A stretch of DNA of 64,000 nucleotides from Candidatus Rokuibacteriota bacterium (GTDB lineage Bacteria > Methylomirabilota > Methylomirabilia > Rokubacteriales > CSP1-6), in NCBI GenBank assembly GCA_003221695.1, contig QHSX01000039.1, positions 93,637-157,636 of the forward strand. The letters run 5' to 3'. Of the stretch, positions 8,258-41,040 are shown in pieces. Positions within the stretch are counted from its first letter, which is position 1. Every line of letters begins with the position of its first letter. The translations under genes and the position numbers were made by a program. The notes beneath the pieces are model-generated. The model was given only the letters and a program-made list of their open reading frames with translations. It was not told where the DNA came from and made no database searches.

Positions 8258-8500
8258 ATGAGCAGTCACGCCGTCACCGTGTATTCGAGCCCCACCTGAG
8301 GGCCCTGCAAAGCGGCGAAAGAGTTTCTTTCGTCTCAGGGGGTGCCCTTCGAGGACGTCAACGTGATGGCGAACGCCGATGCGCGCGAGGAGCTGGTCCG
8401 GCTCACCGGGCGCATGGCCGTCCCCGTGATCGTCGTCGATGGCCAGGTCGTCGTGGGCTTCGACCGGGCCAGACTGCAGGCGCTCCTGGCTACTCCTTGA
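8258..8500 (+). CDS. Glutaredoxin/NrdH-like selenoprotein (80 aa) with in-frame UGA (Sec) at 8297-8299 in the motif T-U-G-P-C
   Basis: ATG 8258 with GGAGG Shine-Dalgarno; translation MSSHAVTVYSSPT-U-GPCKAAKEFLSSQGVPFEDVNV...VPVIVVDGQVVVGFDRARLQALLATP is a complete Grx fold; Sec sits at the first Cys of the CxxC motif. Confidence 0.8.
8314..8334 (+). promoter_or_regulatory. Candidate SECIS hairpin for the Grx-like selenoprotein
   Basis: GGCGAAAGA-GUU-UCUUUCGUC, 9-bp stem starting 14 nt after the UGA. Confidence 0.5.
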
Positions 8501-9842
8501 TCTGACCCTTCAGTTTCCGGAGGTGCTGTCGGGCGACGTCCACCCAGTCCTTCTCGGACTGGAGCGGCGAGGCGAGCTGGATGTAACGCTCCCAGTGGGT
8601 GATGGCTTCCTTGGGATCGATCTTCTCGTAGACGAGGGCCATGTTGTAGAGCGCGCCGGTGTGCGCGTTGTCCACCTCGATCACGCGCTTGTACTCGTCC
8701 ACCGCCTCCTTGTACAGGCCCTTCTCCTCGTAGACCTCGCCGAGCCCCATCCGCGCCTCGACGAGCTGCGCGTCGAGCTCGATCGCCTTCTTGTAGGCGT
8801 TGACGGACTCGTAGTAGAGCCCCTTCTCCGAGTAGTAGATCTTGCCGAGGCTCAGATAGACCTTGGGGTTGACCGGGTTGAACACGAGCGCCTTCTGGTA
8901 CGCCGCGATCGCCGCGTCGGTCTCACCCTTCGCGGCGCGCGCGTCCCCCAGCCCGACGTGGGCGTCGGCATAGAAGGGTCGGAGCTCGATCGCCTTGTTG
9001 TACGCCTCGACGGCCTGGTCGAAGAGGCGCCGGGGCGCCGCGAGGAACAGGTCCCCGAGCGCCTTGAACGGCTCGGGGTACGCCGCGTCGAGCTGGGTCG
9101 ACGCACGGAATTGCGCGGCCGCCTTCCAGCGGTTGCCGAGCGCCTGGTGGACCGCCCCGAGGGTGTAGTGCGCGACGACGAAGTTGGGGTCGGCCTCGAT
9201 CGCCCGTGCAAGCAGGTCCACCGCGGTCTCGTTGCCGTCCTGGGTCCCGCGCTGGAGCGCGAGCGCGCCCCGAGCGAAGAGCTCGAACGCGCGCAGCGAC
9301 CGCGTCGGCAGCCCCGCGCGCTCGATCCGCGCGGTCTCGGCGGGCGTGACCGGGATCTTGAGGGTCCGCGCGTAGGCCATCGGCAGGCCCGCGAGCTTCA
9401 CGAGGAGCTCGCCCTCCGGCGCCACGACCGGCTCGAGCTGCACCGTCTCGACCCCCGTCGCCTTGACGTCGAAAAGCCGCGGCTGGATCACGAGCTCCGT
9501 GGACCGTCGGGTCATCGTGCCAAACAGCGCGGCGTCGGCGCGCACTGCACGCGCCGCCTGAGAGAGTGCCGCCTCGCCCCACGCCTCTGGCTGGCCGTAG
9601 GCGCGCAGGCGCGACCGCTCGATCTCAACGAACGCCGGGTGCTGCGCGAGCCCGAGCGACAGGACCTGGGCGATCGCCTCGCCGATCCACTGCTCCTCGC
9701 GGTCGAGCGCGCTCGCGTCGAAGGGCGCGATCAGGACGATGCGCGGCTTGACGCTCGGCGCCGCGTCGAGAGACAACGAGAGCACGATCAGACTCCCGAG
9801 CACCGGGACCCCGAGCCTCCACCGCCACCCGCGTCCACGCAT
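8490..9842 (-). CDS. TPR-repeat protein with signal peptide (BatC-like), last gene of the MoxR/vWA operon
   Basis: 450 aa from MRGRGWRWRLGVPVLGSLIVL...; multiple TPR units (AYNKAIELRPFYADAHVGLG...); ATGA overlap with the upstream vWA gene. Confidence 0.75.
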   Translation of the reverse strand: MRGRGWRWRLGVPVLGSLIVLSLSLDAAPSVKPRIVLIAPFDASALDREEQWIGEAIAQVLSLGLAQHPAFVEIERSRLRAYGQPEAWGEAALSQAARAVRADAALFGTMTRRSTELVIQPRLFDVKATGVETVQLEPVVAPEGELLVKLAGLPMAYARTLKIPVTPAETARIERAGLPTRSLRAFELFARGALALQRGTQDGNETAVDLLARAIEADPNFVVAHYTLGAVHQALGNRWKAAAQFRASTQLDAAYPEPFKALGDLFLAAPRRLFDQAVEAYNKAIELRPFYADAHVGLGDARAAKGETDAAIAAYQKALVFNPVNPKVYLSLGKIYYSEKGLYYESVNAYKKAIELDAQLVEARMGLGEVYEEKGLYKEAVDEYKRVIEVDNAHTGALYNMALVYEKIDPKEAITHWERYIQLASPLQSEKDWVDVARQHLRKLKGQIKE

Positions 9843-12800
9843 CACCGGACCTCCTTCCGCTTCCCTCCCCGTCGGAGGAGACCCACCACCCATCCGAAGG
9901 CACCCGGGCCGAGACGGCGCAGCCCGATGTCCGGGATTAACAGAACCGCGACGAGCCCGACGAGCCACGGCCAGACCTCCACCGTGATGCGGGACCGCCG
10001 CCGCCCCTTGAGGAAGGCGTCGCGCGGGGTCTCGAGCGCCGACCCGCCCGTGAGCTCCGCCAGCTCGCGGAGGAGTGCCTCGTCCACCCCGAGGTCTCGC
10101 AGCTCCTGGGCGTAGGGTACCACCAGCCCCGCGAGCTGCGAGCCGATGACCCGATCGCCACGTCGCTGCGCCATGCCGACCAGGTACACGCCCTCCTGCG
10201 TGACCGGGAAACGACCGCGGTAGCGGCCCGGCCCCACCTGCTCGAGGTCGATCACGGTGCGCTCCCGGTTGGGCGCGACGACTCCCACCTGGGAGTCCAG
10301 GAAGTTGATGAACTCGCCCTTGGTGTCGACAGCGTCGACCACGATCTCACCGAGATCCTCGTGCCGCTCGACGAGCGCCACCGTGTCGCTGCGCGACCCG
10401 CTCCGCAGCGTCCAGCGAACGAGCTGCGACCAGAACTTGTTGAAGTCACGCCAGCGGAGCCAGAGGACCGCCCACTTCGCCTTGGCGTCGGACGTGAAGG
10501 CCGCCGTGCGACCGAGCCCGTACCGCCACGTCGCGAGCACCGGGTCCTCCTGATGGCTCATCAAGACCAGCTCGGCCGTGGACTTGAGCGTGGTCGCGAC
10601 GTAGCCGCCGAGCGGCGGCACGTTCTTCCAGTCGATCTCCTGCATCGCTTCGTGGTTGGGCGACGTGAGCTGGGGCTTGAAGGGCTGCTCGATGAGCGAG
10701 GCCTTCGACGCGAGCTGCGTCTCGAGCGTGAAGATACGCGGGATCGTCTGCGAGTCCTCGGTGTAGTAGAAGCGCCCTCTGCCCCACTTGGCGATATCCA
10801 CCATCAGCTGGACGTCGGCGTCCTTGCCGATCGCCACCGTCGACACGGTGATCTTGTCCTTCGCCATCCGGCGCAGCAGCCCCTGGAAGTCGCCGCGCGT
10901 CATCTGGCCGTCGGAGAGGAAGATGACGTGCTTGAGGAGCGCGGGCCGCTCGAACAGGACCGCGTACGACTCCTTGAGCGCCGGGTAGCCGTCCGTGCCC
11001 CCGCCCGCCTTGATCGTCGCGACCGCGTGATGGATCGCCTGCCGGTCCTTCGCCGACCTCACCGGCGCGTCCCAGATGAACTCGGTGTCCCAGCTCATGA
11101 CGCCGACTTCGTTGCGCTCGTCGAGGAGGTCCACGACGAGGTGGGCGGCCTCCTTCGCCAGGTCGAGCTTGGTGACCTTCTCGTCGGTCGCCATCGCCAT
11201 CGAGCCGGAACGGTCGATCGAGAGCACGACGGCCAGGCTCGGGATCTCGACCTTCTGCTTGACCTCCATCGTGACCGGCAGCGCCTCCTCGATCGGCGTG
11301 CGGTAGTAGCCGCCGAGCCCGAAGCTCTCCTCGCCACCGACCATCAGGAGCCCGCCGCCTCCATCGCGGACGTAGTCGCGGATGTGGGCCATCTGCGTCC
11401 GCGTGAGCTTGAGCGAGGAGACGTTGGAGAGGATGACGCCGTCGTATTTCTGCAGGCCCGCGACGTCGCTCGGGATCTGCGGCGGCTCGACGACGGTGAC
11501 CTCAATGTTCTGCGACCGGAGCGCGCCGGCGAGGGACTGCGCGTGGCTCCGGTCGCGGTCGGCGAGGAGCACCTGCGGCCGGCCGCGGACAACCACCGTC
11601 CCGACGGCGCGGTTGTTCTCTTCGATCGTGTCGCCCTCGACCTCGATCAACGCCTGGTAGACGTGGATGCCGCTGGCGTCGAGCGCCTGACGGTAGCCGA
11701 AGACGTTCTTGCCCGCGCTGAGCCGCACCACCTGCGAGCCGAGAAACTCGCCGTTGCGGAAGAGCGAGAGCCGGCCCTGTGCGTCCTTGTGACTCCACGC
11801 GACCACCTTCGCCTGGAACGGCTCGCCGTATTTGACCTCCTGCGGGAGCACGAGCGCCTCGGCCACCACTTCCTGCGTGAAGGTCAACGGCGCGGCGATG
11901 TAGTGGATGTCGCTGCCGGCGTTCTTGGCGGCCTGGGCTCCGGCGAGCGCGTTGCCGGCGTTCTGCCGCCCGTCCGTCAGCATCACGATCCGGTTCGCCT
12001 GCCCCGGCGGCAGCATCGCGAGGGCGAGCTGGATCGCCTGGAAGATGTTGGTCCCGCGCCCGTCCACCTGCGCCTTCGGCCGGTCCACCGTGGGCCGGTT
12101 CGCGAGCTGCTGGTCGACGACGGCGGCGTCGCCGAACACGATGAGGCCTTGCCGGTCGCCCGGCCTCATCGACCTGACGCCTTCGGCAACGAACCGGTAC
12201 GCGCGCTCGCGCGCGGCAAGGCTCACGCTGTCCGACACGTCGAGGAGAAAGACGACGTTCATCCGGTCCACCCAGCGCGGCAGCGCGGGACGCGCGAGCG
12301 TCAGGAAGAGGACGACGATGAGCGCGCCCCGGAGTGCCAGCGCCCAGCGGTCGCCGGCGCCCGTCGGCGCCTGGAGCCGCCCCGCGGTCTGGCGCCGCCA
12401 GTAGAGCAGCCCCTCGACCGCGAGCAAGACTGCGGCGATGAGCACGAACAGCGGCCAGAGCTCACGTTGGATCGGCACGGGCGCCGGCGGACCGACGGCG
12501 GGCCCAGACGACGCCGGCAGGGGGCGCGGCTGGAGATTCGATTCCTCGGTGTCCATCAGATTCACCGCGACCCGCGTCTCCCCCCGCGCGCTCGACAGCG
12601 TGTAGACGCCAACCTCGTCGGTCTCGGTGAAGCTCACCATGCCGCGGGTCACGAGCGCCTTGACGACGCGCCCGCGCGGGGTCGTCACGTTCACGCTCGT
12701 CACGCCGTGCGCCACCGGGAGGAGGATCGGCTGGCCGGCCGCGAGCTGCAGGCTCGACTGGTCGAGCGCCGCCGGGTGGAGCCAGCGCAGGCTGTTAGAG

Positions 12801-14218
12801 AGGATCAGCGGGAAGGCGACGCGCAGCGGGAAGTCCGTCTTGAAGAGGTCGAAGCCGATGAAGATCGCCTTCCGGTCGGGCTCCTCGAGCGCGTAGATGA
12901 GCGGGCCGCCGACGGCCTCCACGAGCGGCCGGCCCGCGGCGAGCGGGCGGATCCGGATGGCGTCTTCGATCGCGACCTTCGCGAACTCAACGTGGCGCAT
13001 GATCGGATGCGCGCGATCCCAATCCATGATGGTGGGTCGCTCGATCCTGCCGAGGACTTCGAGCGGGACGTCCGCGGGTACCGCGTTCACAAACACGAAG
13101 CGCCCCGCGCCCACGCGCGGCGGCGTGATGGAGTCCAGGACGACGACGTCCGCGTCGGCCATGCCACCCGCGTACTGGTCCGACGTGCGAACCTCGAGCG
13201 ACACCTGCGGGTCCGTCCTGAGGACCTTCTCGAGGAAGAGGTTCCCCGGGCTCACGAGGAGGACGTTGATCTTGCGCGGCGGCGGCAGCACCGCGTAGGC
13301 GACGTCGTCCACCGCCAGGTCGTCGTCGATCCGGAGGCGCGCCGTGACGAGCCCACCGCCGCCGTGGCTGAAGGGCAGGACGATCGAGCGCCGGACGCTC
13401 GGCTCGAGCGTCACGTCCTTCTCGGCGATCGTCCGGCCGTCGAGCTCCAGGGCGAACGTGAAGGTCTGAGCCTCGGGCGAGTAGTTCACGAGCGAGACGA
13501 ACGCCTGGTAGTCGGACCCGCCGACGGAGATCTTCCGGATCGCCAGGCTCGCGATGCCGACGTTCCAGCTCCGTCGCCCCACGCCGACCCAGCGGATGCG
13601 CGGGTCGGCGACGGCATGGGCCGAGGGCTGCGCGAACGCGCCGTCGGTGAAGACGTGGATCTCGGCGCGCGGGTCGGCGCCGACCAGGGCGCGCGCGGTC
13701 CGGACGGCCTCCGCGAGGCGGGTCGGGAGGTCCCGTGCCTGCGCCTGGCCGATGGCCGCCAGGGCACGCTGGCGGTCGCGCCCCAGCGCGGCCGTCACCT
13801 TCGGCTGGACGCCCGTCTCGATCACCATCACCTCGGCGCCCTCGCCCAGGCGACGCACGAGCTGGACCGCCGCCGCCTGCGCGATGTCGAAGCGCGACGG
13901 ACTGACGTCCCTCGCCTTCATGGAGGCCGAGGTGTCGAGCACCACCACGACCTTGCGAGCGCCGTCGCCCATCACCGTGACGGCCGGCCGCGCGAGGGCG
14001 AGGGACAGCGCGAGGAGGGCGAGGATCTGGAGAATCAGCAGCGGATCGCGCTGGAGCCGCTGGAAGAACGCCGACGCCTCGCGGTCGCGCAGCGACGGAT
14101 CCCACAGGAGCAGGCTCGGCACCCGCCGCTCGCGCCGGCGAATCTTGAGGAAGTAGAGCAGGATGAGCGGGAGGACCAGCGCCGTGAGAGCGAACGCGAG
14201 CGGCGAGAGGAAGCTCAT
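9842..14218 (-). CDS. Giant (1458 aa) membrane-anchored protein with BatA-type N-terminal domain and three von Willebrand factor A domains (fused BatA/BatB-like)
   Basis: N-terminus LILLYFLKIRRRERRVPSLLLW (BatA_N); vWA cores at VVVVLDTSASM, VVFLLDVSDSVS and LSIDRSGSMA; C-terminal TM segment. Confidence 0.8.
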   Translation of the reverse strand: MSFLSPLAFALTALVLPLILLYFLKIRRRERRVPSLLLWDPSLRDREASAFFQRLQRDPLLILQILALLALSLALARPAVTVMGDGARKVVVVLDTSASMKARDVSPSRFDIAQAAAVQLVRRLGEGAEVMVIETGVQPKVTAALGRDRQRALAAIGQAQARDLPTRLAEAVRTARALVGADPRAEIHVFTDGAFAQPSAHAVADPRIRWVGVGRRSWNVGIASLAIRKISVGGSDYQAFVSLVNYSPEAQTFTFALELDGRTIAEKDVTLEPSVRRSIVLPFSHGGGGLVTARLRIDDDLAVDDVAYAVLPPPRKINVLLVSPGNLFLEKVLRTDPQVSLEVRTSDQYAGGMADADVVVLDSITPPRVGAGRFVFVNAVPADVPLEVLGRIERPTIMDWDRAHPIMRHVEFAKVAIEDAIRIRPLAAGRPLVEAVGGPLIYALEEPDRKAIFIGFDLFKTDFPLRVAFPLILSNSLRWLHPAALDQSSLQLAAGQPILLPVAHGVTSVNVTTPRGRVVKALVTRGMVSFTETDEVGVYTLSSARGETRVAVNLMDTEESNLQPRPLPASSGPAVGPPAPVPIQRELWPLFVLIAAVLLAVEGLLYWRRQTAGRLQAPTGAGDRWALALRGALIVVLFLTLARPALPRWVDRMNVVFLLDVSDSVSLAARERAYRFVAEGVRSMRPGDRQGLIVFGDAAVVDQQLANRPTVDRPKAQVDGRGTNIFQAIQLALAMLPPGQANRIVMLTDGRQNAGNALAGAQAAKNAGSDIHYIAAPLTFTQEVVAEALVLPQEVKYGEPFQAKVVAWSHKDAQGRLSLFRNGEFLGSQVVRLSAGKNVFGYRQALDASGIHVYQALIEVEGDTIEENNRAVGTVVVRGRPQVLLADRDRSHAQSLAGALRSQNIEVTVVEPPQIPSDVAGLQKYDGVILSNVSSLKLTRTQMAHIRDYVRDGGGGLLMVGGEESFGLGGYYRTPIEEALPVTMEVKQKVEIPSLAVVLSIDRSGSMAMATDEKVTKLDLAKEAAHLVVDLLDERNEVGVMSWDTEFIWDAPVRSAKDRQAIHHAVATIKAGGGTDGYPALKESYAVLFERPALLKHVIFLSDGQMTRGDFQGLLRRMAKDKITVSTVAIGKDADVQLMVDIAKWGRGRFYYTEDSQTIPRIFTLETQLASKASLIEQPFKPQLTSPNHEAMQEIDWKNVPPLGGYVATTLKSTAELVLMSHQEDPVLATWRYGLGRTAAFTSDAKAKWAVLWLRWRDFNKFWSQLVRWTLRSGSRSDTVALVERHEDLGEIVVDAVDTKGEFINFLDSQVGVVAPNRERTVIDLEQVGPGRYRGRFPVTQEGVYLVGMAQRRGDRVIGSQLAGLVVPYAQELRDLGVDEALLRELAELTGGSALETPRDAFLKGRRRSRITVEVWPWLVGLVAVLLIPDIGLRRLGPGAFGWVVGLLRRGGKRKEVR

Positions 14219-15102
14219 ACCAGTAGGCGGCCTCGGATCTGCGCGAGCACGAACTCCTCGACCGGGGTGTCGGTCGTCACCCGGTGGTACCCGATCTCCT
14301 GGGTGCGGCTGAACGTCTCGACGCGCTCGAGGAATTGCCGAAGGCGCTCGCGGTAGGTACGGAGCGCCTCGCCGTCGACGGAGAGCTCGCGGGTCTCGCC
14401 GGTCTCGGCGTCGACGAGCCGCAGATCGCCGGCGAGCTCGGGGTCCATCTCCTCGGGCGCCAGCACGTGGACCAGGTGGACGTCGAACCGCCGCTCGAGC
14501 AGGGCGCGCACCCCCGTCTCGAACCCGGCGGGATCCATGAGATCGGAGACCACGACGGCGAGCCCCGGCTCGCGCGCTCGCATGGCGTAGTTGCCGAGCC
14601 CGTCGTTGAGACTCGTGCCGCCGGCAGGCCCGACGCGACCCAAGAACTCGAACAGGTTCACCACCTGGTTACGCCCGCGTGTGGGCGACCAGCCCTCGGC
14701 CACGCGCTCGCGCAGCACGCCCACTCCCACGCGCTCCATGCCGACCAGGCCAACGAAGCCGAGCGCGGCCGCGAGCCGCGCGCCGTACTCGAGCTTCGTC
14801 GGCGCGCCGAAGTCCATCGACGCCGAGGCGTCCAGGAGGAGGTGCAGGCACAGGTCCTCCTCGTCCACGAAGAGCTTGACGTGGAGCCGGTCGAGGCGCC
14901 CGTAGATGTTCCAGTCGACGTAGCGGAGGTCGTCACCTACCCCGTAGGCGCGGTAGTCGCAGAACTCGACGCTGTGCCCGCGGCGCGGGCTACGCCGTTC
15001 CCCCCTCACGCGTCCGCGAAACACGCGACGCGAGAGCAGCGCCAGGCGCTCCAGCTGCGCCAGGAACTCCGACGAGAAGGGGGCGGGGCGCGTGGTGGGC
15101 AT
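14215..15102 (-). CDS. DUF58-family protein (vWA-like), MoxR partner
   Basis: 295 aa; HLLLDASASM motif and DUF58 context between MoxR and the vWA genes. Confidence 0.75.
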   Translation of the reverse strand: MPTTRPAPFSSEFLAQLERLALLSRRVFRGRVRGERRSPRRGHSVEFCDYRAYGVGDDLRYVDWNIYGRLDRLHVKLFVDEEDLCLHLLLDASASMDFGAPTKLEYGARLAAALGFVGLVGMERVGVGVLRERVAEGWSPTRGRNQVVNLFEFLGRVGPAGGTSLNDGLGNYAMRAREPGLAVVVSDLMDPAGFETGVRALLERRFDVHLVHVLAPEEMDPELAGDLRLVDAETGETRELSVDGEALRTYRERLRQFLERVETFSRTQEIGYHRVTTDTPVEEFVLAQIRGRLLV

Positions 15103-15105
15103 GAA

Positions 15106-16557
15106 CTAGCGCTCGTCGAGCGCCTGGAAGTAGTTCCGGATCTGGTCGTGATAGTCGCGCGGCACTTGCTCGCGCGTGATCGCGTCCTCCATCATCTTGC
15201 GGTACTGCCCGACGACCCCGAGGTACATGAGGCGCGAAGGCATCTGGCCTGCCCGGCCGGTGAGGTTCGTGTCGTAGCCCTCCTTCTTGCCGCGACGCGA
15301 TTCGCCCTCGACGCCGACGTCGTAAGGACTGGCGCGGAGCCGAGCCGTCGCGTCGCCCTTCGGCATGGTGCTCCGTCCCTTGCCCGGCAGGAGCCCCTCG
15401 CCCTCCCCGAAATCCTGGTCCTCGGGCCCGTTACCCTCCCCGCCCCGGGCGTGGTCGCGCCCCCGGACGCCGCGCTCGTTCTCACGGCCGCCGCGCAGGC
15501 CCTTCCCCGAGCGTTGCGCCTCCTCCATCGCACGCATCTTGTCGAGGGCGCGCTGCATGGCCTCGAGGGCACGGTCCGTCTGCCCGCCCTCGAGCGCCTC
15601 CATCCCCTCGGTCGCGTCGCCGCTCCAGTTACCGCCCTTGCGTCCGAGGCGCTCCATCTCGTCGAGCAGCTCGCGGAGCTTCCGGGGCGAGATGTCCGGA
15701 GAGAGCCCGCTCAGCAGCGACTTGGACTTGCGGTAGACCATCTTGTACTGGGAGCTCGTGAAGTCCGACTGGAGGTCCGGCAGCCTATCCACCTGCTCCA
15801 GCAGCTTGAGCCGCTCGTCGCCCTTCTTCAGGAAGCTGTTGAAGTCGGGCCGCTGGCTCGACAGCGCGGTGTCCTTGAAGATCGCCGAGAGGTCGCCCGC
15901 GGTCGACCCGCTGCCCGTACCACTCTTCTGGGCGAAGTCGCGCTCCTCGACCGACGGGCGCTTGAGCGGCGTCGTCTGCAGCGGCCGCGATCGCTCCTCC
16001 ATCAGCTCGGTCGTGGTCCGCTCCTCACGCTGCTCCGGCTCGGTGGACGGGGTGAAGTCGCCGATCGTTCCCAGCGGCAGGTGCATCGCCGGCGCGAACG
16101 CCAGGACCAGCCCCGCGAGGAGCGGCGCCGGCAGCCAGCGCCCTTCGAGCGGAATCGCGCGGCGCACGATCCATCGCGACTCGAGGGTGGAGACGCGCGC
16201 CGCGGTGTCGGCGACGAGCGCGTCCACGAGCGGCGTTCGGTCGGGGCGGTCGGCCCACTCGAGCACGGTGGCGACGCGGTCGGCGAGGCCGAAGGCGCGG
16301 TCGGCGAGCCGCGCGACATCCTGAACGATGACTCGCTTGGTGAACCCGTAGGTGGTGCCGGCGATCGCGCCCAGCGCGACGAGCGCGGGAGCCACGGCGA
16401 GCGCGGCGAGACCCAGGGCGGCCTTGAAGACGAGCACGGCCGCGGCGACGAGAGCGCCCCAGAACGCGCCGCGCAGGCCCCAGTGCTCGGCGCGGCGGAC
16501 CCGGACCTCCCGCGCGACCCGCCGGACAAGGACTTCGATCGTCTGCGGATGATCCAT
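15106..16557 (-). CDS. Hypothetical membrane protein with a long low-complexity charged C-terminal region
   Basis: 483 aa; N-terminal TM helices, then a region rich in R/E/G/K; no recognisable catalytic motifs. Confidence 0.55.
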   Translation of the reverse strand: MDHPQTIEVLVRRVAREVRVRRAEHWGLRGAFWGALVAAAVLVFKAALGLAALAVAPALVALGAIAGTTYGFTKRVIVQDVARLADRAFGLADRVATVLEWADRPDRTPLVDALVADTAARVSTLESRWIVRRAIPLEGRWLPAPLLAGLVLAFAPAMHLPLGTIGDFTPSTEPEQREERTTTELMEERSRPLQTTPLKRPSVEERDFAQKSGTGSGSTAGDLSAIFKDTALSSQRPDFNSFLKKGDERLKLLEQVDRLPDLQSDFTSSQYKMVYRKSKSLLSGLSPDISPRKLRELLDEMERLGRKGGNWSGDATEGMEALEGGQTDRALEAMQRALDKMRAMEEAQRSGKGLRGGRENERGVRGRDHARGGEGNGPEDQDFGEGEGLLPGKGRSTMPKGDATARLRASPYDVGVEGESRRGKKEGYDTNLTGRAGQMPSRLMYLGVVGQYRKMMEDAITREQVPRDYHDQIRNYFQALDER

Positions 16558-16572
16558 GGGGTCCTCTCGCGC

Positions 16573-17586
16573 TCAGCGAAGAAAGACTTCTCTACCGCTG
16601 GCCGTAATGGCCTCTGCAGCCTCCACGATCTGGCCGATCAGGGTGTCGGCGTCCACCCCCTCGGCCTCGCCCTCGAAGTTCAGGATGACCCGGTGACGCA
16701 GGGCAGGCATGGCGAGGGCCTTGATGTCCTCCGCGCTCACGTTGTAACGCCCCTCCGCGAGGGCCCGGACCTTGGCGCCCAGCACGAGCGCCTGGGCGCC
16801 GCGCGGGCTGGCGCCGTACCGCACGAACCGACGCGAGACCTCGGGCGAGCCGGCCCAGGACGGGTGCGTCGCCATCACGATGGTGGACGCCAGGTCGCGG
16901 ACGTGCGAGGCGATCGGCACCTCGCGGATCAGCTCGCGGAGCGAAAGCACCGTGGGCCCGTTCATCACGCGGCTCACCGTCACGTGCCGTGATTGAGTGG
17001 TGCGGTCGATGATCGCGTTCAGCTCGTCGATTGCGGGGTACCGAACCCGCAGCTTGAACAGGAACCGGTCCAGCTGCGCCTCGGGCAGCGGATAGGTGCC
17101 CTCCATCTCGATCGGGTTCTGGGTCGCAAGCACGAAGAAGGGCGCGGGGAGCGGCCGCGAGGCGCCTCCGACGGTGACGGCGCCTTCCTGCATCCCCTCG
17201 AGCAGCGCCGACTGGGTCTTCGGCGTGGCGCGGTTGATCTCGTCCGCGAGGAGGATGTGGGCGAAGATCGGCCCCTGCTGGAACTGGAAGTGCTTTCGGC
17301 CGTCCACGTCCTCAACGATGATGTTCGTACCGATGATGTCGGCGGGCATCAGGTCGGGCGTGAACTGGATCCGCGAGAACGACAGCTCGAGGCCTTCGGC
17401 GAGCGTCTTGATGAGCAGCGTCTTGCCGAGACCCGGCACGCCTTCGAGGAGGACGTGACCGCCGGCGAACATGGCGGTCAGGACGTGGGTGATGATCTCG
17501 CGGTGGCCGACGATGACCTTCTCGACCTCCGCCCGCAGCGCCTCGAACGCGGTGACGAACGCTTCCACCCGAGCGTCCTGAGTCAT
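16573..17586 (-). CDS. moxR: MoxR-like AAA+ ATPase
   Basis: Walker A GVPGLGKT and Walker B LLADEINRA; 337 aa; heads the vWA/DUF58 operon. Confidence 0.9.
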   Translation of the reverse strand: MTQDARVEAFVTAFEALRAEVEKVIVGHREIITHVLTAMFAGGHVLLEGVPGLGKTLLIKTLAEGLELSFSRIQFTPDLMPADIIGTNIIVEDVDGRKHFQFQQGPIFAHILLADEINRATPKTQSALLEGMQEGAVTVGGASRPLPAPFFVLATQNPIEMEGTYPLPEAQLDRFLFKLRVRYPAIDELNAIIDRTTQSRHVTVSRVMNGPTVLSLRELIREVPIASHVRDLASTIVMATHPSWAGSPEVSRRFVRYGASPRGAQALVLGAKVRALAEGRYNVSAEDIKALAMPALRHRVILNFEGEAEGVDADTLIGQIVEAAEAITASGREVFLR

Positions 17587-17885: not shown

Positions 17886-18929
17886 TCACGCGGAAACCGG
17901 TACCAGCTGGCGGTAGACGTCGATGTAGCCGTCGATCTCGCGCGCCGCCGGGTACCGACGCGTGATCAACTCGCGTCCCGCGGCGCCCAGGCGGGCGCGG
18001 AGGGCGGGGTCGGAGGCGAGCAGCTCCGCGCGACGCTCGAACTCGGCCTCGTCGCGGAAGTGGAAGCCGGTGACGCCGTCCTCGATCAGAGATCGGTTGC
18101 CCTCGATGTCAGACGCCAGCACCGCACGACCCAGCGCCAGCGCCTCGAGCACGGAATTGGCCATCCCACCCTCGGAGATCGAGCAGTTCAGCACGACGTC
18201 GCCCGTGGCGAGGAGCCCGCCCATCTCGGCGTGGGGCACGGCACCGATCCAGCGGGCCCACGGCCGCCCCCGGAGGGCCCGGCGGAGCGCGTCGCCCTCG
18301 TCGGCGTCGAGCGTGGGCCCGACGTAGAGGAGGCGCACGCGCGGGCGTCGGGCGACGAGCCGTTCGAGCGGCTCGAGCGGGAAGCGTGGGCGCTTCACCA
18401 TCCGGATGCCGGCGGGGAAGACGAACAGGTCACGCTCCCGCGGGAGGTCCCAGCGGGCGCCGAGGTCGAAGGGCTCCGTCGTGTCGACCAGGGTGGACTG
18501 CGGAACGACGACGAGCCGCCCCCGGAGGTCGGGCAGCGCTCCGGCCACGCGCTCGGCGATCGAGTCATGGAAGGCGGTCAGACGCGCGGCGCCCTCGAGC
18601 ACACGGCGTACGACAGAGGCACGCTCGGGATCGAAGAGGTCGTGGTTGGCATCGGTGCCGGTCAGCGTCACGACCAGCGGGATCTCGGCCCGTCGGGCCT
18701 GGCGCAGCGCGAGCGGCCCCGCGCGATAGGCGTGGAAGGCGTGGACGACCGCGGGCCGAAACGCGTCCACCTCGGCCTCGACGGCCACCCCGGGGTGGAG
18801 CGAGAGGTCCCAAACGTCGACCTCGACACCGCGCGCGCGAAGGCCATGCGCCACCCGGGCGGCGGTCACGGCGTTGCCGCGCACCGAGGGGAACGCAAAC
18901 GGGGTGAGCAGCGCCACGCGCGGCGACAT
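17886..18929 (-). CDS. GT4-family glycosyltransferase
   Basis: GT-B fold; ...LSEGGMANSVLEALALGRAVLASDIEGN... EX7E-like C-terminal domain; start taken at MSPRVALL (ATG 18929). Confidence 0.7.
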   Translation of the reverse strand: MSPRVALLTPFAFPSVRGNAVTAARVAHGLRARGVEVDVWDLSLHPGVAVEAEVDAFRPAVVHAFHAYRAGPLALRQARRAEIPLVVTLTGTDANHDLFDPERASVVRRVLEGAARLTAFHDSIAERVAGALPDLRGRLVVVPQSTLVDTTEPFDLGARWDLPRERDLFVFPAGIRMVKRPRFPLEPLERLVARRPRVRLLYVGPTLDADEGDALRRALRGRPWARWIGAVPHAEMGGLLATGDVVLNCSISEGGMANSVLEALALGRAVLASDIEGNRSLIEDGVTGFHFRDEAEFERRAELLASDPALRARLGAAGRELITRRYPAAREIDGYIDVYRQLVPVSA

Positions 18930-19043
18930 CGGCCCCGAGCATACGGGCATCGGCGCGCTCCGTCCAGACGCCACGCGACGGGCCGCGGGTCCGGAATCTC
19001 TCACCCCGGCTCGACCGTCCTATATAATGTGCTGGGATCTTAG

Positions 19044-19313
19044 ATGTCTGAGTGCGGAGCGTCAGGACCCTCATCGATCGAGTGTCGGCAGATCGCCGAA
19101 CTCTTGGGCGAGTATCTCGAGGGAACTCTCCCCCAACAGACGCGCGAACTGCTGGAGTGGCACATCGAGGGCTGCGCCCCCTGCGTCGCCTTCGTCAACA
19201 CGTACCGCGGCACGATCACCGCCGCCCGCAAGCTCCGCGACGTCGACATCCCTCCCGAGCTGAAGAAACGGCTGCTGGCCGTTCTCCGCGCCCAGCGCGC
19301 CGCTAAGCCGTAA
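19044..19313 (+). CDS. Putative zinc-finger anti-sigma factor (zf-HC2/RsrA-like, 89 aa)
   Basis: H-x3-C-x2-C motif (HIEGCAPC) plus upstream Cys; no sigma-factor gene adjacent. Confidence 0.6.
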   Translation: MSECGASGPSSIECRQIAELLGEYLEGTLPQQTRELLEWHIEGCAPCVAFVNTYRGTITAARKLRDVDIPPELKKRLLAVLRAQRAAKP

Positions 19314-20367
19314 CCCGGATCACCGGCTCCGAAACAACCTCACCGATCTCCCAGCACTGCTCCCCGCGGCGGCGGAAGGCGTCCATCACGCCCCGCGCGC
19401 GAGCAGGCGCGACCGAGAAGAGGAGGCCGCCCGACGTCTCCGATTCCGTGAGCAGCGAAACGAGCGGCGCCGGGATCGACGGATCGATGCGCAGGCCCTC
19501 GCCGAAGACGGTGTCGACGTGCCGGCGATTACGCTTCATTCCGCCGCTCCAGTGGCCGGCCTCGGCGAGCTCGCGCGTGCCGGGAAGCAGGGGCAAGCGG
19601 GAGGCGCTGATCGCGATGCCGACGGCCGACGCCCTCACCATCTCACCGGCGTGACCGAGAAGACCGAAGCCCGTGATGTCGGTCGCTCCGCGGGCGCCGG
19701 CCTCGCGCGCGACCTCCGCCGCCACACGATTCAGCCTGAGCATGCTCGCGACGGCGCCCTGGAGCACCGCCAGGCTCGCGGCATTGTCCTTCGCGGCGGT
19801 CGTGATCACGCCAGTCCCCAGCGGCTTCGACAGGAAGAGCCGGTCGCCCGACCGGAGGCCGCCCTTGATGAGGATGCGGTCGGGGTGGACGCGTCCGGTC
19901 ACGCAGAGACCGTACTTGGGCTCGGCGTCGACGACCGTGTGCCCCCCCGCGATCACGCCGCCCGCCTCCGCGACCTTGTCACTGCCTCCCCGGAACACCT
20001 CCGCGATGATCGCCTTTGACATGTCGCGCGGGAAGCCCGCGACCGCGAGGGCGAACAGCACCTCGCCGCCCATGGCGAAGACATCGGACATGGAGTTCGT
20101 GGCCGAGATCGCGCCCCAGGTCCACGGGTCGTCGACCACCGGCGGGAAGAAGTCCACCGTCGCGACGATCGCCACGTCGGCGGTGATGCGGTAGACCGCG
20201 GCGTCGTCGGCCGCCCCCAGACCGACGAGCAGGTCCGGCTGCGCGCGACCCAGGGGCTTGAGCGCCTCGAGCACCTCCTGGAGATCTCCAGGAGCCATCT
20301 TGGACGCTCAGCCGGCGCAGGTGGCGTACGAGGTGAGTCGGACCTCCGTATGGGTGTGACTGGTCAT
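19303..20367 (-). CDS. selD: Selenophosphate synthetase SelD, selenocysteine-containing (UGA at 20308-20310)
   Basis: Extending the track ORF upstream through an in-frame TGA gives MTSHTHTEVRLTSYATCAG-U-ASKMAPGDLQEV..., collinear with E. coli SelD [21 protein letters not shown], with Sec at the Cys17 position; the rest of the protein has SelD/AIR-synthase-like motifs (DAAVY, DFFPP, NSMSDVFAMGG). Confidence 0.85.
20274..20293 (-). promoter_or_regulatory. Candidate SECIS hairpin in selD
   Basis: Perfect palindrome CUCCUGGA-GAUC-UCCAGGAG (8-bp stem) starting 14 nt after the UGA. Confidence 0.5.
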
Positions 20368-20374
20368 CGCGGTC

Positions 20375-21280
20375 TTAAGACGGCTCCGCCGGGGACTCCG
20401 ATTCGACGAACTGGACGAAGGCCTGGGCGAGCGGTGAGCGGCTCCGGTCGCGGTGGGTGACGAGATAGAACGCGCGCCCGACGCGCAGGTCGTGCACCCG
20501 GAGACAGAAGAGGAGCCCCGCGCGGCACTCGTCCTCCACGGCCCGCTTCGAGACGAGCGCGATCCCGACGCCCGCGCGCACGCCCTGCTTGATCGCCTGG
20601 GTCGAGCCCATCTCACCGACGACACGGAACGCCGACAGATCGGTGTCCGCCTGGTCGAGCGCCCGCTCGAGCGCCTCGCGCGAGCCCGAGCCCTGCTCGC
20701 GCACGATGAGGGGCTCGCGCCGAACGTCGGCGAGCGTCACGGTCTTGCGGTTGGTCCACGCGTGCCCCGCCGGGACGACGAGGACGAGCTCGTCGGCCAT
20801 CAACTCGCGCGCCAGCAGGGTCTTCGGACCGGGCGGCGCGCCGACGACGCCCACCTCGGCGCGTCCCGCCTCCACCCACTCGGTGACTTGGCGGCTCGAG
20901 CCGATCAGGAGGCAGATCGAGATGTCCGGATACTTGCCCTTGAACCGTCCGATCAGCGCGGGCAGCACGTACTCGCCCGGGATCGTGGAGCCGCCGACGA
21001 TGAGCTCGCCCGACATGCGTCCCTGGAACTGGTCGAGCGCCTGCTGCGCCTCGCGCTGGAGCGCGAGCATGCGGCGCGCGTAACCGAGCAAGAGCCGGCC
21101 CGCGTGGGTCGGCGTGGCGCCGCGGCCGAGCCGGTCGAGGAGCGGGACGCCGAGCTCGTCCTCGAGGGCGCGGACGTGTTCGGAGACGGTCGGCTGCGTC
21201 AGCGAGAGGGCGTCGGCGGCGCGGGAGAAGCTCCCCAACTCGGCCACCTTCGCGAACACCTCGAGGCGGCGAAGATCCAT
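20375..21280 (-). CDS. LysR-family transcriptional regulator
   Basis: N-terminal HTH (LEVFAKVAELGSFSRAADALSLTQPTVS) and LysR substrate-binding domain; 301 aa; stop lies 7 nt upstream of the selD start. Confidence 0.85.
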   Translation of the reverse strand: MDLRRLEVFAKVAELGSFSRAADALSLTQPTVSEHVRALEDELGVPLLDRLGRGATPTHAGRLLLGYARRMLALQREAQQALDQFQGRMSGELIVGGSTIPGEYVLPALIGRFKGKYPDISICLLIGSSRQVTEWVEAGRAEVGVVGAPPGPKTLLARELMADELVLVVPAGHAWTNRKTVTLADVRREPLIVREQGSGSREALERALDQADTDLSAFRVVGEMGSTQAIKQGVRAGVGIALVSKRAVEDECRAGLLFCLRVHDLRVGRAFYLVTHRDRSRSPLAQAFVQFVESESPAEPS

Positions 21281-21308
21281 GGGGAGCCGGAAGGGGGGGA
21301 GGCTCGGG

Positions 21309-21521
21309 TCAGTGGCAGCCGCAGCCGCCGCCGCAGCAGCCGCCGGTCGACATGGTCGACGACGGCGTGAAGCTACCGGCGGCCCGGAGACCGAACACCG
21401 ACAGCTTGCGCGTCACATTCGGGCTCGCGCACGCCCGGCACGCGACGGCGGTCGCGTGCCCGGCGACGTACGTCTCGAACTCCTCTCGGCACTCGGTGCA
21501 GCGGTACTCGTAGATCGGCAT
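21309..21521 (-). CDS. FmdB-family zinc-ribbon protein
   Basis: MPIYEYRCTECREEFE...CRAC... and a Cys/Gly-rich tail; 70 aa. Confidence 0.7.
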   Translation of the reverse strand: MPIYEYRCTECREEFETYVAGHATAVACRACASPNVTRKLSVFGLRAAGSFTPSSTMSTGGCCGGGCGCH

Positions 21522-21524
21522 CTG

Positions 21525-21728
21525 CTACTCACCGCCGCGCTGGACGTAACTCTTGACGAACTCCTCGGCGTTCTCCTCGAGGATGTCGTCGATCTCGTCC
21601 AGGAGCTTGTCGATGTCTTCCTTGATCTTCTTGCCCTTCTTGGCGAGTTCCGGGCTGCCGGCAGCCCCGTCACCCCCCTCGGCGGGCTTGGTGGGCTTGG
21701 TCTCCTTCTTCTTCTGCTGCTCAGCCAT
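21525..21728 (-). CDS. pup: Prokaryotic ubiquitin-like protein Pup homolog (C-terminal GGE)
   Basis: 67 aa; disordered N-terminus; C-terminus KLLDEIDDILEENAEEFVKSYVQRGGE matches the Pup consensus (DDLLDEID.VLE.NAE.FV..YVQKGGQ/E). Confidence 0.75.
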   Translation of the reverse strand: MAEQQKKKETKPTKPAEGGDGAAGSPELAKKGKKIKEDIDKLLDEIDDILEENAEEFVKSYVQRGGE

Positions 21729-21775
21729 CGCGCCCTCCCTTGAGGCATTCTACCATCGTTCCCGGGCTTTCCCCG

Positions 21776-22912
21776 TCAACGACGGAAGTGTTTGCTGAGC
21801 GTCAAGGTCTGGTGCTGGTAGGAGGAGCCGAGGCCGGCTCCGTAGACCCGCTCCGGGCGGGATCGGAGCCGCTCGAATCCCACCTTGAACGAGGTCTGGC
21901 CGTCGTAGATCAGGAACGGCACCTCCCGCGCCCTCACTTCCATCACCACCTTCGTGCCCAGCACGCTCCCGTCGCCGAAGCCGAAGCCAGGGTCGAAGAA
22001 GCCCGCGTAGTGGGTGCGGATCTCTCCCGCACCCGCGTCGTAAACGACCATCTCCGCCGCGAATTCCGGCGGCACACGGATGCGCTCCTTGGACACGAGG
22101 ATGTAAAAACGGTTGGCTTCCAGAATATACGCGTCGCGGGCGGCCCACTTGATCGGCTCCCAGAATTCGGCCGGGTCGTAGTGGGCGAGCCGACCGAGGT
22201 CCACCGCCGGTGGGTTCGGCTGGGCGCGGTAGCCGATGATTGAGCCCGTCAGCCGTCCGGAGAGGTCGACGCCCATACACAGGCCGTCGTTGAAGGCCGC
22301 GCGCTCGACGGGGATCGGACGCCCGTCGTCGTCGTAGAGCAGCGGCGTCTCGCGGTACATCCGTGCCAGTTCGGCGTCGGTCACCGCGGTTTGCCCGGAG
22401 AGGAGACGGAGCTGATTGAGCGAGGCGCCCGCGTGCACACGGATCGGGAAGGACTGCGGCGAGACCTCGAGATAGAGCGGCCCTTGATACCCCGGGCGAA
22501 TCTCGTCGAAGCGCGGCGTCGCGTCGGTGATGACCCGTGTGAAGATGTCGAGGCGGCCCGTCGTGCTCTTGGGATTCGAGCGGCCCCTCACCCCTTCCGG
22601 GAGCGCCAGCGACTCGAGGAGTGGCACGAGGTAGACCGAGCCGCGCTGCAGCGTCGCGCCAGACTCGAGCGGCAACCGCTCGATGACCAGGTCGCTGTCG
22701 GTCGGGTCGTGCGTCTCGAGCCGGCTCTGGACCGTCTGCCGGAACGGCAGGAAGCTCGCGCGGAGCTGATACGCGCTCGGGCCGAGCCGGAGGTCGAGGC
22801 TCGCGGGCTGGTACTGGTCGTCGCCGATCGGCTGCTCCGCCTGGACCCACCCGTCGCGGACGGCGGCCCGAAGCTCGTGGTCGGGCAGGACGCCGCCGGG
22901 CACGTCGCTCAC
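21776..22912 (-). CDS. 2'-deoxycytidine 5'-triphosphate deaminase family protein (long form, PF06559-like)
   Basis: GTG start at 22912 (GTGA overlap with the thrB stop); GVLPDHEL...QPASLDLRLG...NPKSTTGRLDIFTRVI...GPLYLEVSP motifs; the N-terminal half of the track ORF is artefact. Confidence 0.7.
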   Translation of the reverse strand: MSDVPGGVLPDHELRAAVRDGWVQAEQPIGDDQYQPASLDLRLGPSAYQLRASFLPFRQTVQSRLETHDPTDSDLVIERLPLESGATLQRGSVYLVPLLESLALPEGVRGRSNPKSTTGRLDIFTRVITDATPRFDEIRPGYQGPLYLEVSPQSFPIRVHAGASLNQLRLLSGQTAVTDAELARMYRETPLLYDDDGRPIPVERAAFNDGLCMGVDLSGRLTGSIIGYRAQPNPPAVDLGRLAHYDPAEFWEPIKWAARDAYILEANRFYILVSKERIRVPPEFAAEMVVYDAGAGEIRTHYAGFFDPGFGFGDGSVLGTKVVMEVRAREVPFLIYDGQTSFKVGFERLRSRPERVYGAGLGSSYQHQTLTLSKHFRR

Positions 22913-35463: not shown

Positions 35464-35994
35464 CTACTCCTGACCCTGCAATAAGAGCTTCACGACCTCC
35501 GGCGCAATCTCACGGGCGCGCCGGTCGAGCTCGGGCTCCGTGAGGTTCGCGATCGGGTGGGGCATGAGCAGGAACTTATAGGTCGGGACGCCCCACTGCG
35601 TGGCCATCGCCCGACCGGTCACCTCGAAGACGTCCGTCACGATGGACGCCGACGGTACGCTCGCCTTCTCCAGCAGGATTCCGTCGAGCACACTGCCCGA
35701 CGAGCAAGAGCCTCAGTCGCCGATGCCTGCGACCATGACGTCGCAGGTCTTCCGGACCTCCGCGATGATCTCCTCGTGGGCGGGCACCGACGCGTTGTGC
35801 TTGCGGAATAACTTCCAGTCGGCCGCGCCGTACTCGGCTTTCAGGATGTCGCCGATCTTGGCGAGGAGCCGGTCGGAGTTGAACTTCGTGTTCTCGATCA
35901 GCCCGACGCGCTTGCCTTCGAGCGACGCCGGCCGATCGACGAACGCGATGGTCTGCGTCCGGACCTCCGCGGTGGGGTCGAGGAGCTCGATCAT
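35464..35994 (-). CDS. UGSC-motif selenoprotein (paralog 1), ~176 aa, Sec encoded by TGA at 35713-35715
   Basis: ATG 35994 preceded by AGGAGG; two track ORFs (35713..36033 and 35464..35691) are in the same frame, separated only by TGA; read-through gives ...VMVAGIGD-U-GSCSSGSVLDGILLEK..., a UxxC redox motif; homologous to the N-terminal domain of 39451..41040, which has the same UGSC motif. Confidence 0.75.
35681..35704 (-). promoter_or_regulatory. Candidate SECIS-like hairpin for UGSC paralog 1
   Basis: CUCGUCG-(11 nt loop GGCAGUGUGCU)-CGACGG beginning 9 nt after the UGA; weaker than the other three. Confidence 0.3.
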
Positions 35995-39450: not shown

Positions 39451-41040
39451 TCAGTCGCCGATGGTGACGGTGACCGAGCGCGTGGCCCCGAAGGTCGGGA
39501 TGATCGCGGAATGTTTGCCCGGCCCTCCGGCGACGATCACCATGAGGTCGTCCGGGCTGGCGCAGAGCGCCACGTCCTCCGCGAGGAGCCGTCCCCTGAA
39601 GCGCTCGGGGTCGATCACCCCGAAGCGCTGGCGATTCTCCGGACTGAAGCGGTCGAGCCTCACGCGGGCGCGCTCCCAGATCGCCCGCTTGACGTCGGCC
39701 TTGGACCAGCCCGAGTCCGCGAACGTTCGCGCGTGCTCTGGGCCGAGGACGACGAGCGGCTCACCGCCGAGATAGACGTCGTTGCTCCCCGTCGTCGCCG
39801 CGGTGCCCGCGATCGCGAAGAGGAGCGCCTCGGCACTCGTCGAGCCGTGGTCGTTCACGTTGTGGGGCGCCTCCGAGCCGCACACGGTGACGCAACTCTC
39901 CGTCGCCCCGAACCCACGCTCGACGTGGAGCGGCGCCCACGGGCTCTCCGCCTCGTTCTCGGCCAGGCAGTACGAGTACTTCCCCGGATGGCCGAGTGTC
40001 GCCCGGTCCTCCCGTCCCGGCCGCGCGCCGCCGATATTCTGGAGGGTCAGGCGCACGGCGCGACCGATCACCGCGTTGGCGCGGTGGCCCTGGCCGAGCG
40101 CATTGGCGCCGGCGTTGATCGCGAGGTACCTCACGATCGGACCGTTGACGATGAGGAGTGGCGTGCACGGGTGCGTCGTCGTCTGGATCGCGTTCAGGTT
40201 GAAGCGCGGGTCGGCGAGCGCGCGGATCGCGGCGACGACGACCGGCAGGTGCTCGGGCAGGGCGCCCGCCAGCGCAAGGTTGGCCGCGATCGTCTCCAAG
40301 GTCGCCACGCCCCGGCGGGGTGCCAGCGTCGCGATCACCTCGGCGCGACGGGCCGCGAGGGCGCCGAGGATGCGCTCGACGCGCTCCGCCGTCGGTGGGA
40401 GCACGGGCATCCCGTCCGACCAGCCCTCGGTGAGGGCGAAGTCCTGGAAGAGGTCGATGTCCGCCGGCGCCCTGGCGATCGTGGTGGGGGTGGCCGACGT
40501 CAGCGCAGGCGGCGCGGGGTCGCGCGTGAGCGCGGCGATCACGCGATCGACGGCGTCGTCGGCCTTCGCGCGGGCGAGCTTCGGGTCGATACCCCCGAGC
40601 GGGTGCGGCACCGCGACGAGCCGGAGGTGCGGCACGCCGAGCGCCGCCGCGGCGGCCTCGGCGAGCGAGGCGAAGGCGTCGGTGCCCAGCACGGCGACCG
40701 GGACGCCGCGCGCCTCGATCTCCGCCGCGTCGTGGAAACTCCACGACGTGCAGGACCCTCAGTCGGCGGAGCCTGTGAGGACGACGTCCGACCCGGCGAC
40801 GACCTCGGCGATCACCGTCGCGGGGCGTGACGCGCCTGGCTTCCGCCATACGGTGACCGGCCCGGCGCCCGCGCGCTCGACGAGCAGCTCCGCGACCCGG
40901 CCGAGCAGCACCTCGGCGTTGGGCTTCGAGTTGTCGAGGATGCCGACGCGGAGGCCGGCGAGGCTCCCGCCGCGCCGTGCGGGCGGCTTGACCTCGCCGG
41001 TCGTGGCGCCGAGCGGGCTCAGGACGTCGACGCGGCTCAT
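39451..41040 (-). CDS. Fusion selenoprotein (529 aa): N-terminal UGSC-motif domain (Sec at TGA 40759-40761) joined to the ~340-aa uncharacterised domain
   Basis: The two track ORFs 40759..41040 and 39451..40692 share a frame; the 66-nt gap after the TGA has no stop; read-through gives ...VVLTGSAD-U-GSCTSWSFHDAAEIEARGVPVAVLGTDAF...; ATG 41040 immediately follows the MFS stop. Confidence 0.75.
40728..40748 (-). promoter_or_regulatory. Candidate SECIS hairpin for the UGSC fusion selenoprotein
   Basis: CGUCGUGG-AGUUU-CCACGACG, a perfect 8-bp stem starting 10 nt after the UGA. Confidence 0.5.

Follow-up and report, generated by a model that had tools for sequence, protein, structure and literature searches.

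A very probable selenocysteine-type selD gene, directly preceded by a LysR_Se regulator gene, in a genome of the uncultured Rokubacteria

The DNA analysed here is a stretch of 64,000 nucleotides (referred to as the window) from a Candidatus Rokuibacteriota genome (contig QHSX01000039.1, positions 93,637 to 157,636). On its minus strand it carries a gene for selenide, water dikinase (selD, 19303..20367) which, on translation, yields a protein of 354 residues ending at the stop codon TAG (19305-19303), provided that an in-frame UGA (20308..20310, minus strand) is read as selenocysteine (Sec) at position 20. This codon is homologous to that of the catalytic Cys17 of Escherichia coli SelD and is invariant in 81 of the 81 sequences compared. 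Shortly past it lies a stem-loop (upper part at 20275..20294, minus strand) that we interpret as a selenocysteine insertion sequence (SECIS), and directly upstream of selD, in the same orientation, is a gene for a selenium metabolism-associated LysR-type regulator (LysR_Se, 301 aa, 20375..21280, minus strand). Taking these features together, namely a start at 20367, a UGA at codon 20 read as Sec, the SECIS and the LysR_Se neighbour, we consider it very likely that this selD encodes a selenocysteine-type selenophosphate synthetase.

The extended reading frame of selD

A mechanical open reading frame (ORF) finder delimits selD differently, from ATG 20298-20296 to TAG 19305-19303, and returns a product of 331 residues that begins with MAPGDL. 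As the first-pass annotation of this DNA had observed, an in-frame TGA precedes this start by 12 nt, counted from the T of the TGA (20310) to the A of the ATG (20298). In the same frame upstream of the called ORF one reads, in order, ATG 20367-20365, MTSHTHTEVRLTSYATCAG, the TGA at 20310-20308, the tripeptide ASK and then the called Met (20296..20298, minus strand), which becomes internal Met24 of the full-length protein and corresponds to Ile21 of the E. coli enzyme. From the sequence, ATG 20367 is the predicted start of selD translation.

The assignment of the extended protein was examined by profile and structure comparisons. With U written as C, the 354-residue protein was matched by the SelD equivalog model TIGR00476 (cut-off 125) with 343.3 bits, along positions 1-310 of the 311 in the profile, and by NF002098 with 311.5 bits (cut-off 299), the SelD equivalog models matching from residue 10 on. 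The match to E. coli SelD (structure 3U0O) begins at residue 7 and is collinear across 339 residues (E = 7e-65), that to Aquifex aeolicus SelD (2YYE) at residue 9 (E = 1.9e-56). In the 3U0O alignment U20 falls on Cys17 and K23 on Lys20, a register that needs both the start at 20367 and read-through of the UGA; the earlier proposal that the upstream frame is collinear with the active-site N-terminus of SelD, with Sec in place of Cys17, is borne out by this pairing. Because of it, the 23 residues dropped by gene callers are identified as the catalytic N-terminal loop. E. coli SelD requires both Cys17 and Lys20, so that a truncated SelD would be inactive. The SelD motifs DDAAVY, DFF (as VDFF), ATN..SD.FAMGG (as ATNSMSDVFAMGG) and TD.TGFG (as TDITGFG) are also kept with respect to E. 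coli. In the published structures, the Asp and Asn residues of the ATP- and metal-binding site of the E. coli enzyme are D51, D68, N87, D91 and D227.

Comparative data came from 80 related loci, found by scanning one genome per species (GTDB); nearly all of these genomes are titled Rokubacteria, Rokuibacteriota or Methylomirabilota, and their SelD proteins are 68-93% identical. Counts out of 81 sequences refer to these relatives plus the window sequence. The TGA and the peptide flanking it, [IV]RLT[SA]YA[AS]CAG-U-ASKM[AG]PG, are kept in 80 of the 80 related loci. At codons -10 to -1 the encoded residue varies hardly or not at all and the third positions are free, with 5 different codons for Arg, 4 for Leu, 3 for Thr and 3 or 4 for Ala, and upstream of the predicted selD start codons conservation collapses in the relatives. 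Since residues are kept despite synonymous changes, the stretch before the UGA is marked as translated and under purifying selection.

This conservation also bears on the possibility that the TGA stems from faulty sequencing or assembly, or else is a pseudogene lesion in a selD of the Cys type. TGA is indeed a single base away from the Cys codons TGC and TGT, but each of the 80 related genomes, assembled independently of one another, has it as well, and purifying selection acts on the sequence around it, so that this explanation is effectively refuted and retains virtually no probability. A reassigned genetic code can be ruled out as well. Among the ordinary stop codons of the window TGA is the most frequent, terminating 17 of 30 genes, and the code must therefore be standard and the TGA of selD a case of local recoding.

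The frequent use of TGA as a stop could be turned into an argument that the UGA in selD is a true stop too, closing an upstream ORF of 19 aa, and that SelD is made from ATG 20298 as a protein of 331 residues. That ATG is invariant in the 81 sequences, and the public protein records agree with it: the 120 records closest to the window SelD are 290-333 aa long (nearly all 320-333), they cover 82-94% of the query, not one of the 120 includes its first 23 residues, and MAPGDL is the N-terminus in all five that were inspected. These starts, however, are the output of gene callers unable to read Sec, and selenoprotein genes are usually misannotated owing to their UGA (PMC4561486). A SelD of 331 residues would be without the loop bearing the catalytic Cys or Sec and the Lys, and the ten codons that lead up to the TGA keep their amino acids through synonymous changes and are collinear with the SelD N-terminus. 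We regard synthesis from ATG 20298 as extremely unlikely and retain the start at 20367 with read-through of the UGA.

A stem-loop with SECIS geometry downstream of the UGA

The 20 nt at 20294-20275 (minus strand), CUCCUGGAGAUCUCCAGGAG, form a perfect palindrome. In the RNA they would fold into an upper stem of 8 bp (CUCCUGGA/UCCAGGAG) with the apical loop GAUC, and they encode the peptide A-P-G-D-L-Q-E. The palindrome had been placed 14 nt downstream of the UGA, which holds in the sense that 13 nt lie between the two and the palindrome begins at the 14th. The published model of bacterial SECIS elements specifies a loop of 3-9 nt with G at position 1 or 2, an upper stem of 4-16 bp, a distance of 16-37 nt from the UGA to the loop and a minimum free energy (MFE) of at most -7.5 kcal/mol (PMC13188914). 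With a loop of 4 nt starting with G, a stem of 8 bp, a spacing of 21 nt and -22.8 kcal/mol, the selD hairpin fits these constraints, and this conserved, predicted stem-loop inside the coding sequence thus has the geometry of a bacterial SECIS. A scan of the whole window with Rfam at gathering thresholds gave no hits and no family matching bacterial SECIS elements.

The value of -22.8 kcal/mol is the MFE of a 49-nt element counted from the UGA, which folds into the 8-bp stem with its GAUC loop and a few flanking pairs and has z = -2.55 versus shuffles, and a stretch of 73 nt gives z = -0.88. Folding energy compared with shuffles is weakly informative here, as is to be expected at 70% G+C; codon rarity and covariation are the stronger evidence. 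The hairpin codons GCT, CCT, GGA and GAT account for 3.2%, 3.4%, 5.7% and 12.5% of the Ala, Pro, Gly and Asp codons, respectively, in the genes of the window, and from codon usage alone the joint probability of the hairpin codon string, given the peptide, is about 4e-6. Each of these four codons is kept in 69-74 of the 81 sequences.

As to covariation, 97.5% of the cells of the upper stem are paired, a value that falls to 38-60% once the 3' partners are shifted along the alignment by 1-3 columns. Both-sided changes occur in three of the eight upper-stem pairs (16 cells), the compensatory ones being C20-G39 to G-C in 10 sequences, U24-A35 to C-G in 4 and U21-A38 to G-C in 1, and the covariation score observed for the upper stem was reached by none of 500 shuffles. 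Some of these compensations lead to substitutions in SelD (Q to R, E to D, A to G), so that the RNA constrains the amino-acid sequence of SelD. The RNAalifold consensus contains the inner six pairs only, with a covariation term of 0, and explicit pair counts on the 8-bp stem are more informative.

Flanking the upper stem, further pairs (A-U, G-C, U-G and G-U, alignment columns 14-18 with 41-44) extend the predicted SECIS to 20270..20300 (minus strand). Columns 14/44 are AU in 81 of 81 sequences, 15/43 are GC in 64, GU in 7 and AU in 4, 17/42 are UG in 78, and 18/41 are GU in 81. A long lower stem that includes the UGA was predicted for the window sequence, but its positions are only 53-70% paired in the relatives, and it was dropped from the SECIS model.

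The extended stem has a bearing on another alternative, according to which selD has two products. With selenium, active Sec-containing SelD would be made; without it, the ribosome would terminate at the UGA and re-initiate at the AUG 9 nt further on, giving an inactive, truncated SelD, and the pair would act as a selenium switch. It is established that in bacteria Sec insertion and termination compete at UGA, and the AUG in question is invariant. The invariance has other explanations, however: Met has a single codon, the position is a hydrophobic one (Ile21 in E. coli), and the AUG takes part in the pairing of the extended SECIS stem. No Shine-Dalgarno sequence is found ahead of AUG 20298, and the absence, to our knowledge, of any function for a truncated SelD speaks against the second product. 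We hold such a switch to be very unlikely, and prefer a single, full-length product made by reading the UGA as Sec.

The LysR_Se gene, further UGA-containing genes and the wider neighbourhood

For the gene upstream of selD, the model NF040786 ('selenium metabolism-associated LysR family transcriptional regulator') gives 302.9 bits (cut-off 250) over positions 1-297 of 298. The next best LysR family, YeiE, reaches 194.7 bits against a cut-off of 480, and all other listed LysR families stay well below their cut-offs. The lysR gene had been described as ending 7 nt before the selD ATG, and the coordinates agree: its stop codon TAA occupies 20377-20375, the spacer 20368..20374 (minus strand) and the ATG begins at 20367, leaving no room for a promoter or a terminator between the genes. 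A scan of 18900-22000 did not reveal any site resembling a promoter. It gave two overlapping terminator-like hits, which lie inside lysR and are at chance level, and none in the spacer. Among the related loci, 69 of 80 have a full-length lysR ending within 150 nt of the selD UGA, and the nearest selD ATG, measured from the lysR stop, lies in most cases at -4 to +9 nt, overlaps of the ATGA type included. In view of this conserved tight spacing, of the lack of a promoter-like site in the region and of a terminator-like site in the spacer, the most economical explanation is that the two genes are co-transcribed and translationally coupled; judged from the gene arrangement, this is most likely the case.

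Around selD the genes form the co-directional array thrB-dcd-pup-fmdB-lysR-selD. Pup, FmdB and LysR genes are present in 71, 71 and 74 of the 80 related loci, in the order Pup-FmdB-LysR-SelD where all occur. In five or six relatives lysR is missing and selD comes straight after the zinc-ribbon gene fmdB, which means that lysR is not indispensable for selD expression; the loci concerned are L022, L042, L067, L072 and L074 of our set, and L047 keeps a LysR fragment of 39 aa. The arrangement suggests that lysR has been gained or lost as a unit at the exact fmdB-selD junction.

NF040786 corresponds to the LysR_Se subfamily of Lin et al. (2015, PMC5322559), whose members adjoin selA, selB or selD in organisms far apart from one another and are distinguished by a subfamily-specific conserved proline in the substrate-binding domain. 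The archaeal LysR_Se orthologue HrsM has been tied experimentally to selenium-dependent gene regulation, with selenophosphate as the proposed effector (PMC5322559). By analogy with HrsM, and given the gene arrangement, the regulator encoded in the window probably tunes the transcription of selenium-related genes to selenium status.

Three further genes with an internal UGA were recovered from a scan of the window for in-frame TGA inside coding-like frames. The first coding-potential scans missed selD and one of these three, a glutaredoxin-like gene, the segments upstream of the UGA being short in both; a looser scan recovered the two. The glutaredoxin-like gene (8258-8500, plus strand, 80 aa, UGA at 8297-8299) has the motif U14-G-P-C and matches PF00462 with 77 bits. 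The other two belong to the UGSC family and lie on the minus strand: one (35464-35994, 176 aa, UGA at 35715-35713) has U94 in the motif D-U-G-S-C and scores 138.6 bits with NF041046 (cut-off 125), and the second (39451-41040, UGA at 40761-40759), which carries a C-terminal fusion, scores 125.2 bits with the same model (cut-off 125). All three have hairpins of 9-12 bp with G-first apical loops that start 19-23 nt past the UGA. The first-pass annotation had taken the UGA-to-stem spacing of selD to be the same as in the glutaredoxin-like gene; the two are similar, although not identical, the stem beginning after 13 versus 14 nt and the loop after 21 versus 23 nt. With three more genes in the window that combine a UGA with a hairpin, the organism very probably decodes Sec.

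Some details of these genes may be recorded here. In the glutaredoxin-like gene the ATG is preceded by a ribosome-binding site (GGAGG), and the hairpin is one of 9 bp with a GUU loop 23 nt past the UGA. The UGSC gene at 35464-35994 has a strong hairpin with a GUG loop 19 nt past the UGA, and gene callers would split it in two. In the second UGSC gene the fused C-terminal region comprises about 355 aa without a Pfam match, and this partner might hint at the function of UGSC proteins.

Several observations weigh against the interpretation put forward here. A search for further UGA genes and for selA, selB and tRNA(Sec) had been advised, and when run on the window it was successful in its first part only: no tRNA(Sec) was found in the 64 kb (ARAGORN found no tRNA genes, and Rfam gave no hits), nor was selA or selB found in NCBIfam scans of ten window ORFs of 430-697 aa, which include HscA/DnaK, IscS, glutamate dehydrogenase, ABC transporter substrate-binding proteins and acyl-CoA dehydrogenase. 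With these components not found in the window, we infer the Sec machinery of the host rather than see it. On reading the sequence upstream of the selD ATG 20367, no Shine-Dalgarno sequence was recognised at the standard distance. The 81 sequences come from one phylum, and shared ancestry inflates the conservation counts. In bacterial SECIS elements the loop G is mostly followed by G or U, a pattern which, being stated with 'mostly', is not a defining one (PMC13188914). The selD loop departs from this typical pattern in having GA instead of GG or GU, with G28 and A29 invariant in the 81 sequences, and it differs from the apical loops of the three other selenoprotein genes of the window, which are GUU, GUU and GUG as against GAUC in selD (20283-20286, minus strand). 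To these points must be added the relatives that have selD without lysR.

The loop with the invariant GA (alignment columns 28-31) may mark a gene-specific class of SECIS element in this lineage.

The fact that Sec machinery was not seen in the window leaves room for a reading in which the UGA is decoded by a near-cognate tRNA, for Trp or Cys, without any such machinery, and in which the palindrome is a site in the DNA, of a protein-binding or restriction type, and not a SECIS. Covariation in a perfect palindrome cannot by itself separate a DNA cruciform from an RNA hairpin. Against this stands the recurrence of the arrangement, as four independent genes of the window have a hairpin with a G-first loop 19-23 nt past an in-frame UGA. 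In the three with a known active site (SelD, the glutaredoxin-like protein and UGSC) the UGA stands at the position of a redox or catalytic Cys, which is the signature of Sec decoding, and a Methylomirabilota metagenome-assembled genome is predicted to have 63 genes for selenoproteins (PMC13188914). Near-cognate decoding thus seems exceedingly improbable, in the same measure as synthesis of SelD from ATG 20298, and Sec insertion directed by a SECIS remains our preferred explanation of the UGA in selD.

The remaining neighbours of selD are described for completeness. Further upstream in the array, a gene for Pup (prokaryotic ubiquitin-like protein) is followed after 3 nt by the gene for an FmdB-type zinc-ribbon protein (together 21309-21728, minus strand); the Pup C-terminus is GGE (TIGR03687, 63 bits), and the tail of the zinc-ribbon protein is rich in Cys and Gly (GGCCGGGCGCH). 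At the other end, a gene for a ZAS-type anti-sigma factor (19044-19313, plus strand; H-x3-C-x2-C, PF13490 with 42 bits) lies convergent to selD, with an overlap of 11 nt at the 3' end of the latter, and a relative of it is present in 53 of the 80 related loci. Beyond it lies a gene for a family 4 glycosyltransferase (17886-19004, minus strand), whose best match, the GPMC-system GT4 model, gives 361 bits and is below the cut-off of 400; such a gene is found near selD in 47 of the 80 related loci, at variable distance. A weak similarity to SenB, the selenosugar synthase of selenoneine synthesis that uses selenophosphate, was considered as well and set aside, the score being 112 bits against a cut-off of 300 and the convergent gene separating it from selD. 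Still further on, a co-directional cluster on the minus strand (9842-17586) contains genes for a MoxR-like AAA ATPase (16573-17586), an unassigned 483-aa ORF (15106-16557), a DUF58 protein (14215-15102) and a 1458-aa ORF (9842-14218).

Proposed mechanism and comparison with known systems

Following the established bacterial mechanism, SelB with Sec-tRNA(Sec) would bind the apical part of the hairpin as the ribosome approaches, and would bring Sec to the selD UGA in competition with release factor 2. The product would be the SelD of 354 residues, in which the flexible N-terminal loop C17-A-G-U20-A-S-K23 holds the Sec that binds selenium together with the essential Lys. Since Sec-tRNA(Sec) cannot be made without selenophosphate, which SelD produces, the synthesis of SelD would depend on its own product, amounting to a positive feedback loop. 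LysR_Se may, by analogy with HrsM, sense selenium status.

One can go further and imagine that in this phylum selenium gates SelD synthesis at two levels on one transcript: transcription, with the co-transcribed LysR_Se sensing selenophosphate, and translation, with a SelD-specific SECIS, set apart by its invariant GA from the remaining selenoprotein genes of the genome with their GU loops, conferring a distinct priority for limiting SelB and Sec-tRNA(Sec). This would give a self-reinforcing and possibly bistable switch, perhaps combined with re-initiation at the AUG 9 nt past the UGA when selenium is lacking. We mention this scheme as a speculation that is very unlikely.

Nothing in these findings is new in kind, as Sec-type SelD, the idea of its autoregulation, LysR_Se and the richness of Methylomirabilota in selenoproteins are all in the literature; the peculiarities are local ones only, namely the GA apical loop of the hairpin and the protein loop C-A-G-U-A-S-K, in which position -3 is a Cys and position +2 is not. 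A literature search on Rokubacteria and selenoproteins turned up nothing specific. The main value of the analysis lies in the correction of annotation. The 120 best-matching public SelD records are cut at the UGA and are without the catalytic loop, and pipelines that take such records literally would score SelD, and with it the trait of selenium utilisation, as defective or partial in Rokubacteria and Methylomirabilota. Moreover, 64 kb from an uncultured soil phylum, with four selenoprotein genes and a LysR_Se gene, make a compact case of selenium biology, and selD provides an example of a SECIS hairpin that constrains the choice of codons and even that of amino acids (A-P-G-D-L-Q-E).

Among the SelD genes of prokaryotes 19% have a Sec codon, which is invariably found at the position seen here (PMC4561486), and SelD is the second most widespread family of prokaryotic selenoproteins (PMC9312934, PMC13188914). 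Compared with the Sec-type enzymes of Haemophilus influenzae and Aquifex aeolicus and with human SEPHS2, the window SelD is a member of the same family with Sec at the same position of the loop and Lys three residues on, and the SECIS hairpin likewise lies inside the coding sequence directly past the UGA. Aquifex SelD (2YYE, crystallised with Cys at the Sec site) shares G-P-G-D-L-Q-E, the very stretch that encodes the hairpin in the window gene. The window protein differs in its loop C-A-G-U-A-S-K, which has a Cys three residues before Sec and none at +2, the second Cys of the E. coli motif G-C-G-C-K being absent. It also differs from other Sec-type SelD in the SECIS loop GAUC, with A instead of G or U after the G, and in its host, an uncultured lineage of Rokubacteria/Methylomirabilota.

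With the Cys-type SelD of E. coli (3U0O) the nucleotide- and metal-binding motifs are held in common, whereas Cys17 is replaced by Sec and Cys19 by Ser. The E. coli selD is not known to be preceded by a LysR gene.

The window lysR agrees with LysR_Se and HrsM in matching the hidden Markov model NF040786 and in adjoining a gene of the Sec pathway in an organism that very probably decodes Sec (PMC5322559); its own setting is that of a gene co-directional with selD, 7 nt upstream of it and inside the array thrB-dcd-pup-fmdB-lysR-selD. Set against the bSECISearch consensus (PMC13188914), finally, the predicted selD element is inside the model in loop and stem length, in the G at loop position 1, in spacing and in stability, and departs from it in that GA replaces the frequent G[G/U].

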